In this document: piece after piece, positions 1 through 29,028 of the stretch | Layout of the letters: each line of letters starts with the position of its first letter | Position numbering within the stretch: the first letter of the stretch is position 1 | Assembly (NCBI RefSeq): GCF_030013595.1 | Contig: NZ_CP122768.1 | Origin: Escherichia coli | GTDB lineage: Bacteria; Pseudomonadota; Gammaproteobacteria; Enterobacterales; Enterobacteriaceae | Reading direction: 5' to 3' (one strand) | Length of the DNA stretch: 64,000 bases | Translations under genes and position numbers: made by a program | Notes under the pieces: model-generated | The model's input: only the letters and a program-made list of their open reading frames with translations | What the model was told of the DNA's origin: nothing | Databases searched by the model: none

Positions 1-476
1 GCCGTAAACTGAACGCCAACCGCGCCGAGTTCCGCGATAAAAACGTCCTGCTGGTCGACGACTCCATTGTCCGTGGCACCACTTCTGAGCAGATTATCGA
101 GATGGCACGCGAAGCCGGAGCGAAGAAAGTGTATCTCGCTTCTGCGGCACCGGAAATTCGCTTCCCGAACGTTTATGGTATTGATATGCCGAGCGCCACG
201 GAACTGCTCGCTCACGGTCGCGAAGTAGATGAAATTCGCCAGATCATCGGTGCTGACGGGTTGATTTTCCAGGATCTGAACGATCTGATCGAAGCCGTTC
301 GCGCTGAAAACCCGGATATCCAGCAGTTTGAATGCTCGGTGTTCAACGGCGTCTACGTCACCAAAGATGTTGATCAGGGCTACCTCGATTTCCTTGATAC
401 TTTACGTAATGATGACGCCAAAGCCGTGCAACGTCAGAACGAAGTGGAAAATCTCGAAATGCATAACGAAGGATGA
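1..476 (+). CDS. purF: amidophosphoribosyltransferase, C-terminal portion (5' end lies outside the window; in-frame codons begin at position 3)
   Basis: Frame of ORF 102..476 stays open to the window edge; translation ...[49 protein letters not shown]...NLEMHNEG recognised as the PurF C-terminus; followed by ubiX as in the cvpA-purF-ubiX operon. Confidence 0.9.
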
Positions 477-570: not shown

Positions 571-1140
571 ATGAAACGACTCATTGTAGGCATCAGCGGT
601 GCCAGCGGCGCGATTTATGGCGTGCGCTTATTACAGGTTCTGCGCGATGTCGCAGATGTTGAAACGCATTTGGTGATGAGCCAGGCCGCGCGCCAGACCT
701 TATCCCTCGAAACGGATTTTTCCCTGCGCGAAGTGCAGGCATTAGCCGATGTGACGCACGATGCGCGCGATATTGCTGCCAGCATTTCTTCCGGTTCTTT
801 CCAGACACTGGGGATGGTGATTTTACCCTGTTCAATCAAAACCCTGTCCGGCATTGTCCATAGCTATACTGATGGCTTACTGACCCGTGCGGCAGATGTT
901 GTGCTGAAAGAGCGTCGCCCGCTGGTGCTCTGCGTGCGTGAAACACCATTGCACTTAGGCCATCTGCGTTTAATGACGCAGGCAGCAGAAATCGGTGCGG
1001 TGATTATGCCTCCCGTTCCGGCGTTTTATCATCGCCCGCAATCCCTTGATGATGTGATAAATCAGACGGTTAACCGTGTACTCGATCAATTCGCCATAAC
1101 GCTTCCTGAAGATCTCTTTGCCCGCTGGCAGGGCGCATAA
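571..1140 (+). CDS. ubiX: flavin prenyltransferase UbiX (189 aa)
   Basis: ORF 571..1140; N-terminal MKRLIVGISGASGAIYG flavoprotein motif; synteny after purF. Confidence 0.92.
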   Translation: MKRLIVGISGASGAIYGVRLLQVLRDVADVETHLVMSQAARQTLSLETDFSLREVQALADVTHDARDIAASISSGSFQTLGMVILPCSIKTLSGIVHSYTDGLLTRAADVVLKERRPLVLCVRETPLHLGHLRLMTQAAEIGAVIMPPVPAFYHRPQSLDDVINQTVNRVLDQFAITLPEDLFARWQGA

Positions 1141-1321
1141 CTCCGCTGTTGCCCTGTTTCAGGGCAATTTTGCAACCGCGATCAAATCCTCGACATTTTG
1201 TTTCTGCCATTCAATCGAAACGCTGCGATTCAACCGCTATACCTGCTATCTTCAACTTCAGGACAATAATGCAACGTCTTATTAACATATTTAACGTTGA
1301 ATGTTACTGTTGTCGTCAAGA

Positions 1322-1337
1322 TGGCATAAGACCTGCA
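1322..1337 (+). promoter_or_regulatory. candidate sigma54 (-24/-12) promoter upstream of argT: TGGCAT-N5-CTGCA
   Basis: GG and GC dinucleotides at the consensus spacing of TGGCAC-N5-TTGCA, about 70 bp upstream of the argT ATG; argT is known to be nitrogen (NtrC/sigma54) regulated. Confidence 0.45.
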
Positions 1338-1405
1338 TGAAAGAGCCTGCAAACACACAACACAATACACAACATAAAAAAGCCATTTTCACTTGAGGGT
1401 TATGT

Positions 1406-2188
1406 ATGAAGAAGTCGATTCTCGCTCTGTCTTTGTTAGTCGGTCTCTCCGCAGCGGCTTCCAGCTATGCGGCGCTACCGGAGACGGTACGTATCGGAAC
1501 CGATACCACCTATGCGCCGTTCTCATCGAAAGATGCCAAAGGTGACTTTGTTGGCTTTGATATCGATCTCGGTAACGAGATGTGCAAACGGATGCAGGTG
1601 AAATGTACCTGGGTTGCCAGTGACTTTGACGCGCTGATCCCCTCACTGAAAGCGAAAAAAATCGACGCCATTATTTCGTCGCTTTCCATTACCGATAAAC
1701 GTCAGCAGGAGATTGCCTTCTCCGACAAGCTGTACGCCGCAGATTCTCGTTTGATTGCCGCCAAAGGTTCGCCGATTCAGCCAACGCTGGATTCACTGAA
1801 AGGTAAACATGTGGGTGTGCTGCAGGGATCAACCCAGGAAGCTTACGCTAACGAGACCTGGCGTAGCAAAGGTGTGGATGTGGTGGCCTATGCCAACCAG
1901 GATTTGGTCTATTCCGATCTGGCTGCAGGACGTCTGGATGCTGCGTTACAAGATGAAGTTGCTGCCAGCGAAGGATTCCTCAAGCAACCAGCCGGCAAAG
2001 AGTTCGCTTTTGCTGGCTCATCAGTGAAAGACAAAAAATACTTCGGTGACGGCACCGGTGTAGGGCTACGTAAAGATGATGCGGAACTGACGGCTGCCTT
2101 CAATAAGGCGCTTGGCGAGCTGCGTCAGGACGGCACCTACGACAAGATGGCGAAAAAGTATTTTGACTTTAATGTCTACGGTGACTGA
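1406..2188 (+). CDS. argT: lysine/arginine/ornithine-binding periplasmic protein (260 aa)
   Basis: ORF 1406..2188; signal peptide [22 protein letters not shown]; close paralog of the downstream hisJ product; synteny. Confidence 0.93.
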
Positions 2189-2408
2189 TACGTCGCAGGG
2201 AAGCTGTACCTGATGGAATGATCATCATGGTGCACGCCAGGTTTGTTGCACTATCGTGGTGCATTGAAATGCATACTTAAGCATTTTTAATGAAAAATAA
2301 TACGTCTAACGGGGCGGGATATTTTGCCTTGATGGTCAATTTTATGGCACGATAAGTGTAACAAACCTGTAAATATTCCCTATAAAAAGACTGTCAGTTG
2401 AGGACATT

Positions 2409-3191
2409 ATGAAAAAACTGGTGCTATCGCTCTCTCTGGTTCTGGCCTTCTCCAGCGCAACTGCGGCATTTGCTGCGATTCCGCAAAACATCCGCATCGG
2501 TACCGACCCGACCTATGCGCCATTTGAATCAAAAAATTCACAAGGCGAACTGGTTGGCTTCGATATCGATCTGGCGAAGGAGTTGTGCAAGCGCATCAAT
2601 ACGCAATGTACGTTTGTCGAAAACCCACTGGATGCGTTAATCCCGTCCTTAAAAGCGAAGAAGATTGACGCCATCATGTCATCGCTTTCCATTACGGAAA
2701 AACGTCAGCAAGAAATTGCCTTCACCGACAAACTGTACGCTGCCGATTCTCGTCTGGTGGTGGCGAAAAATTCCAACATTCAGCCGACAGTCGAGTCGCT
2801 GAAAGGCAAACGGGTAGGCGTATTGCAGGGCACCACCCAGGAGACGTTCGGTAACGAACACTGGGCACCAAAAGGCATTGAAATCGTCTCTTATCAGGGG
2901 CAGGACAACATTTATTCTGACCTGACTGCCGGACGTATTGATGCCGCGTTCCAGGATGAGGTCGCTGCCAGCGAAGGTTTCCTCAAACAACCCGTCGGTA
3001 AAGATTACAAATTCGGTGGCCCGTCTGTTAAAGATGAAAAACTGTTTGGCGTAGGGACCGGCATGGGCCTGCGTAAAGAAGATAACGAACTGCGCGAGGC
3101 ACTGAACAAAGCCTTTGCCGAAATGCGCGCTGACGGTACTTACGAGAAATTAGCGAAAAAGTACTTCGATTTTGATGTTTATGGTGGTTAA
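2409..3191 (+). CDS. hisJ: histidine-binding periplasmic protein (260 aa)
   Basis: ORF 2409..3191; signal peptide; same length as and highly similar to ArgT; followed by hisQMP. Confidence 0.93.
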
Positions 3192-3215
3192 TCGCCATCG
3201 GTGAAAGAAAGTCCG

Positions 3216-3239
3216 CTCCCTTCGGGTAACCGGAGGGAG
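3216..3239 (+). promoter_or_regulatory. intercistronic stem-loop between hisJ and hisQ (10-bp stem with one G-U pair, GTAA loop, no T-run)
   Basis: CTCCCTTCGG-GTAA-CCGGAGGGAG inverted repeat read directly; the position fits an mRNA-stabilising or differential-expression structure between the binding-protein gene and the permease genes. Confidence 0.4.
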
Positions 3240-3280
3240 ACAAGAGGCGGTAATTCACCACACACGACAGGACAGGCAGC

Positions 3281-3967
3281 ATGTTGTATGGGTTTTCAGG
3301 TGTTATTTTACAGGGTGCGCTCGTCACGCTGGAGCTGGCTATCAGCTCTGTAGTGCTCGCTGTAATCATCGGTTTAATTGGCGCTGGCGGTAAGCTCTCG
3401 CAAAATCGGCTTTCGGGGCTGATTTTCGAAGGCTACACCACGCTGATTCGAGGCGTGCCGGACTTGGTGTTGATGCTGCTGATTTTCTACGGTTTGCAGA
3501 TTGCACTAAACACGGTGACGGAGGCGATGGGCGTCGGGCAGATTGATATTGATCCAATGGTCGCAGGTATTATTACTCTCGGTTTTATCTACGGTGCTTA
3601 TTTTACCGAAACGTTCCGTGGTGCTTTTATGGCAGTGCCGAAAGGACATATAGAGGCGGCGACGGCGTTCGGTTTTACTCGTGGGCAAGTGTTTCGGCGG
3701 ATCATGTTTCCGGCGATGATGCGTTACGCCCTGCCAGGCATTGGCAACAACTGGCAGGTGATCCTCAAATCTACCGCACTCGTTTCGTTACTCGGCCTGG
3801 AAGATGTGGTCAAAGCCACGCAGCTGGCAGGCAAAAGTACCTGGGAACCGTTCTATTTCGCCATCGTCTGTGGCGTGATTTACCTGGTTTTCACCACTGT
3901 TTCCAATGGTGTGCTGCTGTTCCTTGAGCGCCGCTACTCCGTGGGTGTGAAGAGGGCTGACCTGTGA
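3281..3967 (+). CDS. hisQ: histidine ABC transporter permease (228 aa)
   Basis: ORF 3281..3967; polytopic membrane protein; synteny hisJQMP. Confidence 0.92.
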   Translation: MLYGFSGVILQGALVTLELAISSVVLAVIIGLIGAGGKLSQNRLSGLIFEGYTTLIRGVPDLVLMLLIFYGLQIALNTVTEAMGVGQIDIDPMVAGIITLGFIYGAYFTETFRGAFMAVPKGHIEAATAFGFTRGQVFRRIMFPAMMRYALPGIGNNWQVILKSTALVSLLGLEDVVKATQLAGKSTWEPFYFAIVCGVIYLVFTTVSNGVLLFLERRYSVGVKRADL

Positions 3968-4680
3968 TCGAAATCTTACATGAATACTGGAAACCGCTGC
4001 TGTGGACCGACGGTTATCGCTTTACTGGTGTGGCGATCACCCTATGGCTGCTGATTTTGTCGGTAGTGATAGGCGGAATTCTGGCGCTGTTTCTGGCGAT
4101 TGGTCGCGTCTCAAGTAATAAATACATCCAGTTTCCAATCTGGTTATTTACCTATATTTTTCGCGGTACGCCGCTGTATGTTCAGTTGCTGGTGTTCTAT
4201 TCTGGCATGTATACGCTGGAGATTGTTAAGGGGACCGAGTTCCTTAACGCCTTTTTTCGCAGTGGCCTGAACTGTACCGTGCTGGCGCTGACGCTTAACA
4301 CCTGTGCTTACACCACCGAGATTTTTGCCGGAGCGATCCGTTCAGTGCCGCATGGGGAAATCGAAGCCGCCAGAGCCTATGGCTTCTCGACCTTTAAAAT
4401 GTATCGCTGCATTATTTTGCCATCGGCGCTGCGTATTGCGTTACCGGCCTACAGCAACGAAGTGATCCTGATGCTGCACTCTACTGCGCTGGCTTTCACC
4501 GCTACTGTGCCGGATCTGCTGAAAATAGCCCGCGATATTAACGCCGCCACGTATCAACCTTTTACCGCCTTCGGCATTGCCGCGGTGCTCTATTTAATCA
4601 TCTCTTATGTCCTGATCAGCCTCTTTCGCAGAGCGGAAAAACGCTGGTTGCAGCATGTGAAACCTTCTTCAACGCACTGA
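3964..4680 (+). CDS. hisM: histidine ABC transporter permease (238 aa)
   Basis: ORF 3964..4680; start overlaps the hisQ stop by 4 bp (translational coupling); membrane protein. Confidence 0.92.
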
Positions 4681-4687
4681 GAATACG

Positions 4688-5461
4688 ATGTCCGAGAATA
4701 AATTAAACGTTATCGATTTGCACAAACGCTACGGCGAACACGAAGTGCTGAAAGGGGTCTCACTGCAAGCGAATGCCGGAGATGTCATAAGCATCATCGG
4801 ATCGTCGGGATCGGGGAAAAGTACCTTTCTGCGCTGCATTAACTTCCTCGAAAAACCGAGTGAAGGATCGATCGTGGTCAATGGCCAGACGATCAATCTG
4901 GTGCGCGACAAAGACGGTCAACTCAAAGTCGCCGATAAAAATCAGCTGCGCTTACTGCGCACACGCCTGACGATGGTATTCCAGCACTTCAATCTCTGGA
5001 GCCATATGACGGTGCTGGAAAACGTCATGGAAGCGCCGATTCAGGTGTTGGGCCTGAGCAAGCAGGAAGCGCGCGAGCGGGCGGTGAAGTATCTGGCAAA
5101 AGTTGGGATAGACGAACGTGCGCAGGGTAAATATCCGGTGCATCTTTCCGGCGGTCAACAACAGCGTGTTTCTATCGCGCGGGCGCTGGCGATGGAACCG
5201 GAAGTTTTACTGTTTGATGAACCTACTTCGGCGCTCGATCCTGAACTGGTAGGCGAAGTGTTGCGTATTATGCAGCAACTGGCAGAAGAGGGGAAAACGA
5301 TGGTGGTGGTGACCCACGAAATGGGCTTTGCTCGCCATGTTTCTACTCACGTCATTTTCCTCCATCAGGGGAAAATAGAAGAAGAGGGCGCGCCAGAACA
5401 GTTATTCGGTAACCCGCAAAGTCCTCGTCTGCAACAGTTCCTTAAAGGTTCGCTGAAATAA
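4688..5461 (+). CDS. hisP: histidine ABC transporter ATP-binding protein (257 aa)
   Basis: ORF 4688..5461; Walker [13 protein letters not shown] signature LSGGQQQR, Walker [12 protein letters not shown]. Confidence 0.95.
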
Positions 5462-5467
5462 TTTCCT

Positions 5468-5499
5468 CTCCGGTGGCTAACGCTGCCGGAGTATTTCAT
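5468..5499 (+). terminator. possible terminator after hisP (CTCCGG...CCGGAG stem, weak T-tract)
   Basis: Inverted repeat 5468-5473/5486-5491 followed by TATTTCAT. Confidence 0.35.
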
Positions 5500-5656
5500 G
5501 GGGAATTTGCGAGTCCGCTTCCGCTGAAATGTAAAAGTTGCAGTCCGCTAAAAATACTTCTGAATTCGCTGTCCAAAGATAAAAACTGCCTGCTGCATTG
5601 GGTGTAAATCGTGGTTATTGTCGCGTCATCTTAAATTTGAGGGGTGACGGAACGCC

Positions 5657-6547
5657 ATGACAATATCGACAACTTCCACGCCGCATGATGCGGTATTTAA
5701 ATCTTTTTTACGCCATCCAGACACCGCGCGGGATTTTATTGATATTCATCTTCCCGCGCCGCTGCGCAAACTGTGTGATTTAACAACGCTTAAACTGGAA
5801 CCAAACAGTTTTATTGATGAAGACCTGCGGCAATATTATTCCGACCTCTTGTGGTCTGTGAAAACGCAGGAGGGAGCGGGTTATATTTATGTAGTGATAG
5901 AGCACCAAAGTAAGCCGGAAGAATTAATGGCTTTTCGCATGATGCGCTATTCCATTGCGGCGATGCAAAACCATCTTGATGCAGGCTATAAAGAGCTTCC
6001 ATTGGTGATCCCGATGCTGTTTTATCATGGTTGCAGAAGTCCTTATCCTTATTCACTCTGCTGGCTTGATGAATTTGCCGAGCCTGCGATTGCCCGCAAA
6101 ATTTATTCATCGGCTTTTCCGCTGGTGGATATTACCGTGGTGCCGGATGACGAGATTATGCAACATCGCAAAATGGCGCTGTTGGAGTTAATTCAGAAAC
6201 ATATTCGTCAGCGCGATCTGTTGGGATTAGTCGACCAAATTGTTTCGCTGCTAGTTACAGGGAACACTAATGACAGACAGCTAAAAGCCCTGTTTAATTA
6301 CGTATTACAAACGGGGGATGCCCAGCGTTTCCGTGCATTTATTGGTGAGATAGCGGAACGCGCACCACAAGAAAAGGAGAAACTGATGACCATTGCTGAC
6401 AGATTACGTGAAGAAGGCGCAATGCAGGGCAAACACGAAGAAGCTCTGCGTATTGCTCAGGAGATGCTGGAAAAAGGATTTGACCACGAAGTCATCCTGA
6501 CGCTGACCCGACTTTCACCAGACGATCTTATCGCGCAAAGCCACTAA
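5657..6547 (+). CDS. rpnB: Rpn-family recombination-promoting nuclease / transposase-like PD-(D/E)XK protein (296 aa)
   Basis: ORF 5657..6547; translation recognised as YfcI; N-terminal DAVFKSFL... region typical of the Rpn/YhgA-like family. Confidence 0.85.
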
Positions 6548-6594
6548 CCCTGTAACACCGGGAGTTAACTGGCGGATGTTTGTAGTAAACCACA

Positions 6595-7488
6595 TCAGCG
6601 AACGACATCCGCCAGCGCCTCTTCTAAATCGTACCAGCGAAACGCAAAACCCGCTTCTTCCAGCCGTTTAGGCAGCGCGCGTTGTCCACCTAATACCAGT
6701 ACTGAAGATTCGCCCATTAACAGTCGAATGGCGGTCGCGGGGACGCGCAAAATGGCCGGGCGATGCAGCGCATGACCGAGCGCATGGGCAAATTGTTCAT
6801 TGCGTACCGGGTAGGGCGAAACCATATTAAATGGTCCACGCAGCTCGTTATCCAGCAGCCAGAGAATGCCGTTGACCATATCATCAATATGAATCCAGGC
6901 CAGATACTGCCGACCGGAGCCAATCGGCCCGCCCAGGCCAAGACGAAACGGCGGCAGCATTTTACCGAGAATACCGCCATCCGGTGCCAGCACTACGCCG
7001 GTACGCAGCAGGCACACTCGCGTTTTGTCACTTTGTGCCCGACAGGCAATTTCTTCCCAGCGGGCGCAGAGTTTATGGGTAAATTCGTTATGCGGCGGTT
7101 CCTCTTCGGTAACCACCACTTCACCTAAGTCGCCATAAAAGCCCGTTGCCGAGCCGGAAATGAGTACCGACGGTGGCGTGTCGCTGGCATTAATCAAATC
7201 GACCAGTTTTTGCGTGATATTCCAGCGGCTTTGGCAGAGACGCTCTTTTTGCTCGTGAGTCCAGCGTTTATCAGCAATCGGTTCTCCGGCCAGGTTGATT
7301 ACCGCATCAACGTCGTTGAGGTTACTTTGATCGGCAAGCCCTTGCCATAGTGTCACCCGAGGGCCGAGAACGGAACTGGCTTTCTGCGGGTTACGCGTCA
7401 CTACTGTGATTTGATGGCCCAGATCCAGCAAACGCGGAATCAAATGGCGACCAATTAATCCCGTCCCTCCGGTGATCACTATCTTCAT
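6595..7488 (-). CDS. yfcH: NAD-dependent epimerase/dehydratase-family protein YfcH (297 aa)
   Basis: ORF 6595..7488; N-terminal Rossmann motif [16 protein letters not shown]. Confidence 0.88.
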
Positions 7489-28976: not shown

Positions 28977-29028
28977 CCGAATTTCGATTAACGCTCAGTC
29001 TCTGACTGAGAAAACTGGAAGCATGCTA

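Follow-up and report, generated by a model that had tools for sequence, protein, structure and literature searches.

The Escherichia coli contig NZ_CP122768.1 carries, between hisP and yfcH, an open reading frame of a family with a transposase label, which raises the question whether this gene is a domesticated mobile element or something else. We addressed this question in a stretch of 64,000 nucleotides (hereafter, the window), for which an initial annotation had described a transposase-like Rpn-family nuclease gene that looked domesticated rather than mobile. The coordinates, the ATG start and the length of the product given there were confirmed (Table 1). As had also been described, the gene has its own upstream region of 195 bp (5462-5656, hisP ending at 5461), and the convergent yfcH follows directly, with 47 bp between the rpnB stop codon and the 3' end of yfcH. 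The wider neighborhood consists of the hisJQMP transporter genes on one side and yfcH, folX, and yfcG on the other.

Table 1. Features of the rpnB locus, with positions counted in the window
Feature	Position	Strand	Basis or remark
hisP, left neighbor	4688..5461	+	NF007908, 577.6 bits (cutoff 466)
hisP terminator-like hairpin	5468..5491	+	10-pair stem; kept with and without rpnB
rpnB-specific upstream region, presumed promoter and 5' UTR	5567..5656	+	lost with the gene in the deletion allele
rpnB (yfcI) CDS	5657..6547	+	ATG start, 296 aa = RpnB_L; ORF, PF04754/TIGR01784, RefSeq, K-12 identity
N-terminal nuclease part, residues 1-243, PD-(D/E)XK/Transposase_31	5657..6385	+	alignment to K-12 RpnA, dN/dS
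Internal rpnB segment, the only part retained in E. coli lacking the gene	6101..6130	+	28/30 nt identical
Candidate internal promoter for an rpnB_S transcript	6270..6298	+	ATGACA-17 nt-TTTAAT; predicted
Shine-Dalgarno AAGGAG	6374..6379	+	6-nt spacer to the internal ATG; from sequence, same layout in K-12 rpnA
rpnB_S, nested in-frame gene, 53-aa antitoxin	6386..6547	+	ATG 6386-6388 = codon 244 (M244)
12-bp (4-aa) length polymorphism, RpnB_S helix 1	6416..6435	+	allele comparison; window = short form
Dimorphic tract: end of helix 1, turn, helix 2 of RpnB_S	6472..6503	+	15 differences in 32 bp, two allele classes
Perfect 11-nt inverted repeat CTGGCGGATGT / ACATCCGCCAG	6569..6615	.	arms 6569-6579 and 6605-6615; spans the yfcH stop codon
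yfcH, right neighbor, convergent	6595..7488	-	TIGR01777, 364 bits (cutoff 207)

The product had been named YfcI/RpnB, a Rpn/YhgA-like protein of the PD-(D/E)XK type, and a search with the Transposase_31 model had been proposed as a check. This search gave a significant match: PF04754 (Transposase_31/YhgA-like) aligned over profile positions 1-202 of 203 with an E value of 2.1e-91 and 305.5 bits (cutoff 21). TIGR01784 ([quoted passage not shown]) reached 190.3 bits with a cutoff of 52.1. Both models represent the Rpn/YhgA-like proteins, which are also grouped as COG5464. Identical DNA carries the rpnB label in RefSeq, the 1.5 kb around the gene being 100% identical in two pig isolates, and 5,425 of the 5,426 complete E. 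coli genomes match this 1.5-kb region at an identity of at least 90%. The RpnB of strain K-12 (YfcI, b2305) is encoded at the same hisP-rpnB-yfcH locus, has the same length and shares 96% identity with the window protein, 241 of the 243 N-terminal residues being identical. The equivalog models for RpnA (NF007361, 468.8 bits) and for the RpnE “ISNCY” proteins (NF007418, 461.9 bits) both scored below their cutoffs of 583; the window protein is thus no member of either group but a paralogue of both. RpnA (YhgA) is 66-67% identical to it with the catalytic residues at the same positions, whereas it is encoded at another locus (feoC-rpnA-bioH) and its RpnA_S leaves RpnB uninhibited. RpnE (YfaD; annotated as “ISNCY family transposase”) is the nearest paralogue when DNA sequences are compared (70.6% across the N domain) and is built in the same way; it differs, however, by an extended series of 4-aa repeats within helix 1 and showed no activity in any published overexpression assay. 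The locus is the already characterized E. coli rpnB, of which the window carries a natural allele; K-12 RpnB and the RpnB_S nested in it have been studied before (Kingston et al. 2017, PMC5350276; Zhong et al. 2023, PMC10400941).

The initial annotation overlooked this second, nested product, which starts within the reading frame and turns the locus into a toxin-antitoxin pair of the gene-within-gene type. An internal start, from which the C-terminal domain is made as a separate protein, RpnS, has been reported for each of the five E. coli rpn genes, the full-length RpnL being toxic and RpnS acting as its specific antitoxin (Zhong et al. 2023, PMC10400941). For rpnB, chromosomal tagging in K-12 detected both RpnB_L and RpnB_S, a variant with the internal start removed (RpnB_L*) inhibited growth more than the wild-type gene, and the RpnB-dependent SOS induction was blocked by RpnB_S but not by RpnA_S (Zhong et al. 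2023, PMC10400941). The window allele has the internal start M244 and its AAGGAG site in common with K-12 rpnB, and K-12 rpnA shows the same AAGGAG-6 nt-ATG arrangement at the same codon. A mutant changing K240, E241, and M244 abolished RpnA_S (Zhong et al. 2023, PMC10400941). Counted from M244, residue 29 is D in K-12, in agreement with the published “RpnBS D29 stop” construct. RpnB, RpnA, RpnE, and an Erwinia homologue all share the sequence M244-T-I-A without change, and positions 6362-6400 are unchanged among 12 Escherichia alleles save for one substitution 3' of the ATG in AF14. The full-length start is preceded only by GAGGGG, 12 nt upstream; this weaker ribosome binding site would fit the reported excess of RpnS over RpnL. 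On the structural level, the RpnB tail matches the crystal structure of RpnA_S (7th0), a three-helix bundle. An internal transcription start has been reported for all rpn genes, the coordinates not being given (Zhong et al. 2023, PMC10400941). A candidate for the corresponding promoter of rpnB_S, a weak match, came sixth when the + strand was scanned for sigma-70 promoters under relaxed settings; it is invariant in the 12 Escherichia alleles and was not detected in the stricter scan.

For the N-terminal part, a direct alignment to K-12 RpnA, whose sequence was taken from the feoC-rpnA-bioH locus, placed D11, D63, E82, Q84, R94, and the D164-D165-E166 of the PDDE motif at equal positions; R94 and D165, like D11, D63, E82, and Q84, are residues that have been mutated in RpnA. 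This active-site set is of the PD-(D/E)XK type, with the K replaced by Q (Q84). In published work, the RpnA mutants D11A, D63A, E82A, and Q84K lost recombination, toxicity, and SOS induction altogether, and D63A abolished the in vitro nuclease activity; RpnA itself was described as a nuclease that depends on Mg, is stimulated by Ca, and shows little specificity for sequence, a chemistry that RpnB presumably shares. An AF2 model built from a shallow alignment of nine sequences (mean pLDDT 65, core 70-90) gave the order alpha-beta-beta-beta-alpha-beta, as expected for PD-(D/E)XK enzymes, with D63 and E82 on neighboring strands. Given the moderate confidence of the model, which was also used in a fold search with the N domain, the PD-(D/E)XK fold is regarded as putative. 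In a PDB sequence search, the top 15 matches were designer and natural pentatricopeptide-repeat proteins with E values to 2e-16. These were rejected as homology since every single stretch had an i-Evalue above 20 and the score sums many weak matches of a helical-hairpin motif.

The two parts of the gene evolve differently. Residues 1-243 show dN/dS values of 0.02-0.10, the comparison with a cryptic-clade genome included, versus 0.25-0.6 for residues 244-296; among six E. coli alleles, nucleotide diversity (pi) is 0.0155 in the nuclease part versus 0.075 in the RpnB_S part. The low dN/dS of the N-terminal residues shows that the nuclease domain is maintained by selection and is not decaying.

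Taken as a whole, we consider it highly probable that rpnB is a single-gene toxin-antitoxin module in which the antitoxin gene lies within the toxin gene. Translation of the full-length mRNA would yield RpnB_L with 296 residues, whose N-terminal PD-(D/E)XK domain would cut DNA as judged from RpnA; its overproduction damages DNA, induces the SOS response, kills cells, and leads to RecA-independent recombination. RpnB_S would be made from the internal ATG with its strong AAGGAG ribosome binding site, probably from its own internal transcript. It is identical to the three-helix domain that forms the RpnB_L tail, and would bind RpnB_L via the shared long helix and block the toxin, in a cognate-only manner. 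Because toxin tail and antitoxin are encoded by the same DNA, they would co-vary automatically, which would allow a fast diversification of this domain. For the window allele, such behavior is extrapolated from the K-12 allele, since 9 of the 53 RpnB_S residues differ, all of them within residues 272-283. The module resembles a classical type II toxin-antitoxin system in that a toxic enzyme is bound by a small, largely helical protein acting on its cognate toxin only. The classical antitoxin is, however, encoded by a separate gene, whereas the Rpn antitoxin is an in-frame internal product identical to the C-terminal domain of the toxin.

How does this compare with the mobile origin that the family label suggests? 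According to this alternative, rpnB would be a domesticated or eroded transposase or a homing-type element whose product formerly mobilized its own gene, or on rare occasions still does, with the nuclease, recombination, and toxicity phenotypes being side effects. The legacy name “putative transposase” of the PF04754 family speaks in its favor, as does the plain insertion of the gene into a once-tight hisP/yfcH junction described below. Furthermore, Rpn homologues are frequent on plasmids (4,844 records, 3,052 of them conjugative), each E. coli genome has 4-9 copies of the Rpn family, and self-mobility has been raised for rpnC (Kingston et al. 2017, PMC5350276). Nevertheless, rpnB itself was found at one place per genome, on the chromosome; the plasmid collection contained hits of more than 90% identity, but these turned out to be misfiled chromosome records. 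In approximately 4,750 genomes and in five further Escherichia lineages, rpnB occupies one fixed locus between hisP and yfcH, and its 3' part was not found a second time at the DNA level in any genome. The inverted-repeat search proposed at the outset retrieved no terminal inverted repeats around the gene; the best gene-spanning inverted or direct pairs are 16-20 nt long with 75% complementarity or identity, which we judged to be at chance level. The absence of a target duplication stated initially holds for the rpnB-less junctions, but these are deletion products (see below), and the Salmonella site is too diverged for the original ends to be located exactly; a recognizable duplication was not found at any of these junctions. 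Strong purifying selection on the nuclease domain does not agree with an eroding relic. Moreover, no autonomous transposase of the PD-(D/E)XK fold is known according to the published view, and published work concluded that rpn genes are not autonomous transposons and that the ends of rpn-containing regions vary. Thus, rpnB is an ordinary, fixed gene and not mobile, as had been noted from the sequence, and an origin of its present properties from a domesticated transposase is very improbable. The description “transposase-like” is justified only in so far as the family name carries it; it is a legacy term, and in the published view Rpn proteins are not transposases.

The comparison of presence and absence at this locus allowed its history to be traced. 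In the relatives outside the genus, the junctions were read from fragments of chromosomes that had been filed wrongly among the plasmids, the contig search for relatives having reached just Escherichia and one Erwinia MAG. In these fragments, hisP and yfcH are directly adjacent and convergent, 51 bp apart in Salmonella enterica and 40 bp apart in Serratia proteamaculans, whereas the Escherichia junction spans 1,133 bp and holds rpnB; the term “wedged” used initially was therefore literally true. In Klebsiella pneumoniae, a GNAT acetyltransferase gene lies between the two. The order hisP-rpnB-yfcH is kept in E. albertii, E. whittamii, two cryptic-clade genomes, and E. coli, with an intact ORF in E. 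albertii and E. whittamii. From the tight junction in Salmonella and Serratia, we conclude that approximately 1.08 kb including rpnB was inserted in the ancestor of Escherichia and inherited vertically thereafter. The best homologues in Salmonella (67%) and Klebsiella (62%) were considered as positional orthologues and rejected, both being located at other loci.

Within E. coli, counting by junction-spanning sequence showed that rpnB is missing in 670 of the 5,426 genomes (12%), e.g., in Nissle-type strains, where the junction measures 159 bp. In this allele, homology to the window stops at 5566 and is followed by six unrelated bases and a 30-nt remnant of rpnB. The remnant joins the 3' flank at a microhomology of 9 nt, CTGGTGGAT (6122-6130) with CTGGCGGAT (6569-6577); its local alignment score of 18 compares with a maximum of 12 in 1,000 shuffles. 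The presence of this remnant at the junction shows that the rpnB-less strains lost the gene by deletion and do not represent a virgin site. Further structural variants affect the 3' end of the gene: AF14 has an insertion of 3 kb there, and ST2747 shows a two-gene truncation. The hisP-rpnB region is mosaic. That 12% of E. coli do without rpnB was counted against regarding it as a toxin-antitoxin module.

One might read these losses as the mark of a dispensable, decaying relic without current function, given that truncated rpnB alleles occur occasionally as well and that no loss-of-function phenotype of rpnB has been reported. This reading was already disfavored and appears extremely unlikely. 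It is opposed by the constraint over all 243 codons of the nuclease part, other Escherichia species included, by the ORFs left intact in E. albertii and E. whittamii, by the invariance of both the catalytic residues and the internal start, and by the detection of RpnB_L and RpnB_S in K-12.

The regions flanking the gene were analyzed for signals of transcription. The spacer behind hisP contains the stable terminator-like hairpin, the folding of 5462-5510 reaching -21 kcal/mol (z -3.8). The rpnB-specific part of the spacer is well conserved with a pi of 0.006, its last ~30 nt being unchanged in 10 of 11 other Escherichia alleles; neither strict nor relaxed scans gave a convincing consensus sigma-70 promoter upstream of rpnB. 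Downstream, the inverted repeat folds on the + strand with -25.1 kcal/mol (z -2.6). A T-run following it is absent on both strands, and the right arm of the repeat belongs to the yfcH coding region and is conserved in Salmonella. In a published RNA-seq survey, yfcH-rpnB is one of the convergent gene pairs whose transcripts overlap.

The tail of the gene, coding for RpnB_S, is polymorphic in two ways. Eleven to 12 residues past M244, the window has the short form EEGA-MQGKH, found in 3,526 genomes, versus the long form EEGRNDGLILGKR in 1,227 genomes. We identify this 4-aa indel with the published hypervariable 4-aa site in helix 1 of Rpn proteins, which lies 8-20 residues past the internal Met; the long 4-aa repeats of RpnE are found at exactly the same position. 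The second polymorphism is the dimorphic tract, in which nine residues are changed and K-12 has the version DRGLDRELVMMV. Identity of the last 108 nt to the window is bimodal, with 893 genomes at 95% or above, 3,859 at 80-90%, and a single one between. High values of both dS (~0.5) and dN (~0.38) in the tract point to an old or imported allele and not to a recent burst of change. The window tail belongs to the minority type and is common to O157:H7. Both tails are identical, although the two alleles differ at 15 sites of the N domain and their hisP genes at 28 sites within the terminal 300 bp, indicating that recombination transfers the tail between backgrounds. An origin of the tract by gene conversion from a paralogue in the same genome is unsupported: a search for a donor yielded no second DNA-level copy of the rpnB 3' part in any E. 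coli genome.

With regard to the meaning of this dimorphism, we tentatively raise the idea that the two tract types are distinct specificity types, either in toxin-antitoxin pairing or toward a phage trigger, kept by balancing selection and spread by cassette exchange, although we regard this as rather unlikely. If true, the tract types would form a second axis of diversification beside the published number of 4-aa repeats. A related possibility is that the RpnB nuclease itself generates the rearrangements clustered at its 3' end, in the deletion allele as well as in AF14 and ST2747.

These rearrangements lead to another view of the function, in which the main role of rpnB would be RecA-independent recombination and gene acquisition, serving housekeeping or horizontal transfer, with RpnB_S as a brake rather than a defense antitoxin. 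In published experiments, overexpression of RpnB increased RecA-independent recombination 19-fold, with 98.7% killing and the earliest SOS induction. Together with the natural variation of the 3' end and the mosaic hisP-rpnB region, this would support such a role, and housekeeping roles have been allowed for (Zhong et al. 2023, PMC10400941). Yet deletion of rpnA-D left the basal recombination unchanged and gave no reported loss-of-function phenotype, the effect was observed only on overexpression and with RpnS unknowingly co-expressed, and toxicity and recombination are uncorrelated in the published data. As nothing ties the structural variants to RpnB activity either, we consider recombination as the main role to be quite improbable.

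For rpnB as a toxin-antitoxin module, the likely role would be an anti-phage defense triggered by release of the antitoxin. The plasmid-borne RpnP2 of ECOR13 is the only Rpn protein shown to be phage-protective; it shares the family and the published L/S arrangement with RpnB, but is plasmid-encoded and was likened to the chromosomal RpnB by description. Neither RpnB_L nor RpnB_S matched a model of PADLOC-DB v2.0.0 (2023 release), which holds only for the models of that release. The gene is not located in a defense island, its neighbors being housekeeping genes, and this, in combination with the lack of a reported loss-of-function phenotype, points against a defense role at rpnB.

The finding itself is of little consequence, since rpnB has already been named and experimentally studied, and the locus history and the two-allele tract are only mildly new material, being covered by what has been published on the high variability of Rpn C-terminal domains. 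It corrects the annotation in that the ORF encodes two overlapping products, a toxin and an intragenic antitoxin, and should not be read as the relic of a transposase. The genome comparisons provide the natural history of one chromosomal Rpn module, comprising its insertion, retention, loss in approximately 12% of E. coli, a constrained nuclease, and a tail in two alleles. They also identify natural allele pairs usable for testing what sets the specificity between RpnL and RpnS.

Nucleotide diversity is unusually high in the last 300 bp of hisP, the gene upstream of rpnB, with a pi of 0.054 and 41 segregating sites among the E. coli compared. The O157:H7 strain differs from the other E. coli at 28-33 sites over this stretch. 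The five non-K-12 strains show no amino-acid change at all, the sole one (Q/R) being found in K-12. The hisP 3' end adjoining rpnB looks like an imported recombination tract.

The other flank has been rearranged in further E. coli strains. In AF14 (NZ_OZ546925.1), an insertion of ~3 kb, which includes nhaC and a gene for a trans-sulfuration enzyme, separates rpnB from yfcH and replaces the final rpnB codons, the AF14 RpnB tail ending in ...SPEELLNQKQ. In ST2747 (NZ_CP007394.1), rpnB and yfcH have each lost their 3' end to a deletion and now abut as two pseudogenes; this makes a third type of rearrangement affecting the 3' end of rpnB.

The low-coverage 380-bp contig NZ_VIRF01000009.1 (L017, filed as ‘Novosphingobium sp. 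BW1’; coverage 0.9) contains the 3' ends of E. coli rpnB and yfcH at 90-100% identity; E. coli DNA has almost certainly contaminated this Novosphingobium assembly. Several PLSDB ‘plasmid’ and INPHARED ‘phage’ records with RpnB-like proteins (H56, H58, H60, H61, H71, H180-H187) are in fact chromosomal, being either complete chromosomes or large pieces of them, from E. coli, Klebsiella, and Salmonella. Because of these misfiled records, plasmid-borne RpnB-like genes are overcounted; the same records served as outgroups.

A helix pair within RpnB_S, the antitoxin domain translated from an internal start, is similar to the consensus pentatricopeptide-repeat (PPR) motif GKLDEALKLFEEMVEKGIKPDVVTY. 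Against designer PPR proteins, summed E-values reached down to 2e-16 with zero individually significant stretches; the resemblance is probably a helical-hairpin convergence combined with an artefact of scoring against repeats.

Two structured RNAs were also matched in the window. RNA-OUT, the antisense RNA of IS10, was matched at full length, therefore indicating an IS10/Tn10-type element close to the distal end of the window. The nuoG RNA motif lies within the nuo operon, where expected.

Coordinates of the features and comparison loci
Feature	Sequence	Position	Strand	Score
hisP, last 300 bp	window	5162-5461	+	
hisP, last 300 bp	O157:H7 (L007)	1-300		
RpnB_S helix pair (RpnB residues 256-283)	window	6422-6505	+	
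nuoG RNA motif (Rfam RF01748)	window	28979-29021	+	50.3 bits
RNA-OUT (Rfam RF00240)	window	59240-59309	-	98.8 bits
Region with the rpnB/yfcH insertion	AF14 (L018)	1018-4940		
Region with the rpnB/yfcH deletion	ST2747 (L019)	1706-3238		
STM3766	Salmonella Infantis (L022)	3501-4418		
hisP/yfcH junction	Klebsiella pneumoniae (L025)	4374-5137		

The closest Salmonella homologue of RpnB is STM3766 (67% identity; Salmonella Infantis AFYI01000003.1), annotated as a hypothetical protein and nothing more. Its locus is not hisP/yfcH; mgtC and a gene for a magnesium-translocating P-type ATPase lie a few genes away from it. In Klebsiella pneumoniae NZ_CP129873.1, the hisP/yfcH junction holds a GNAT acetyltransferase gene and a hypothetical ORF of 117 bp; different genera have therefore taken different insertions at this convergent gene boundary.
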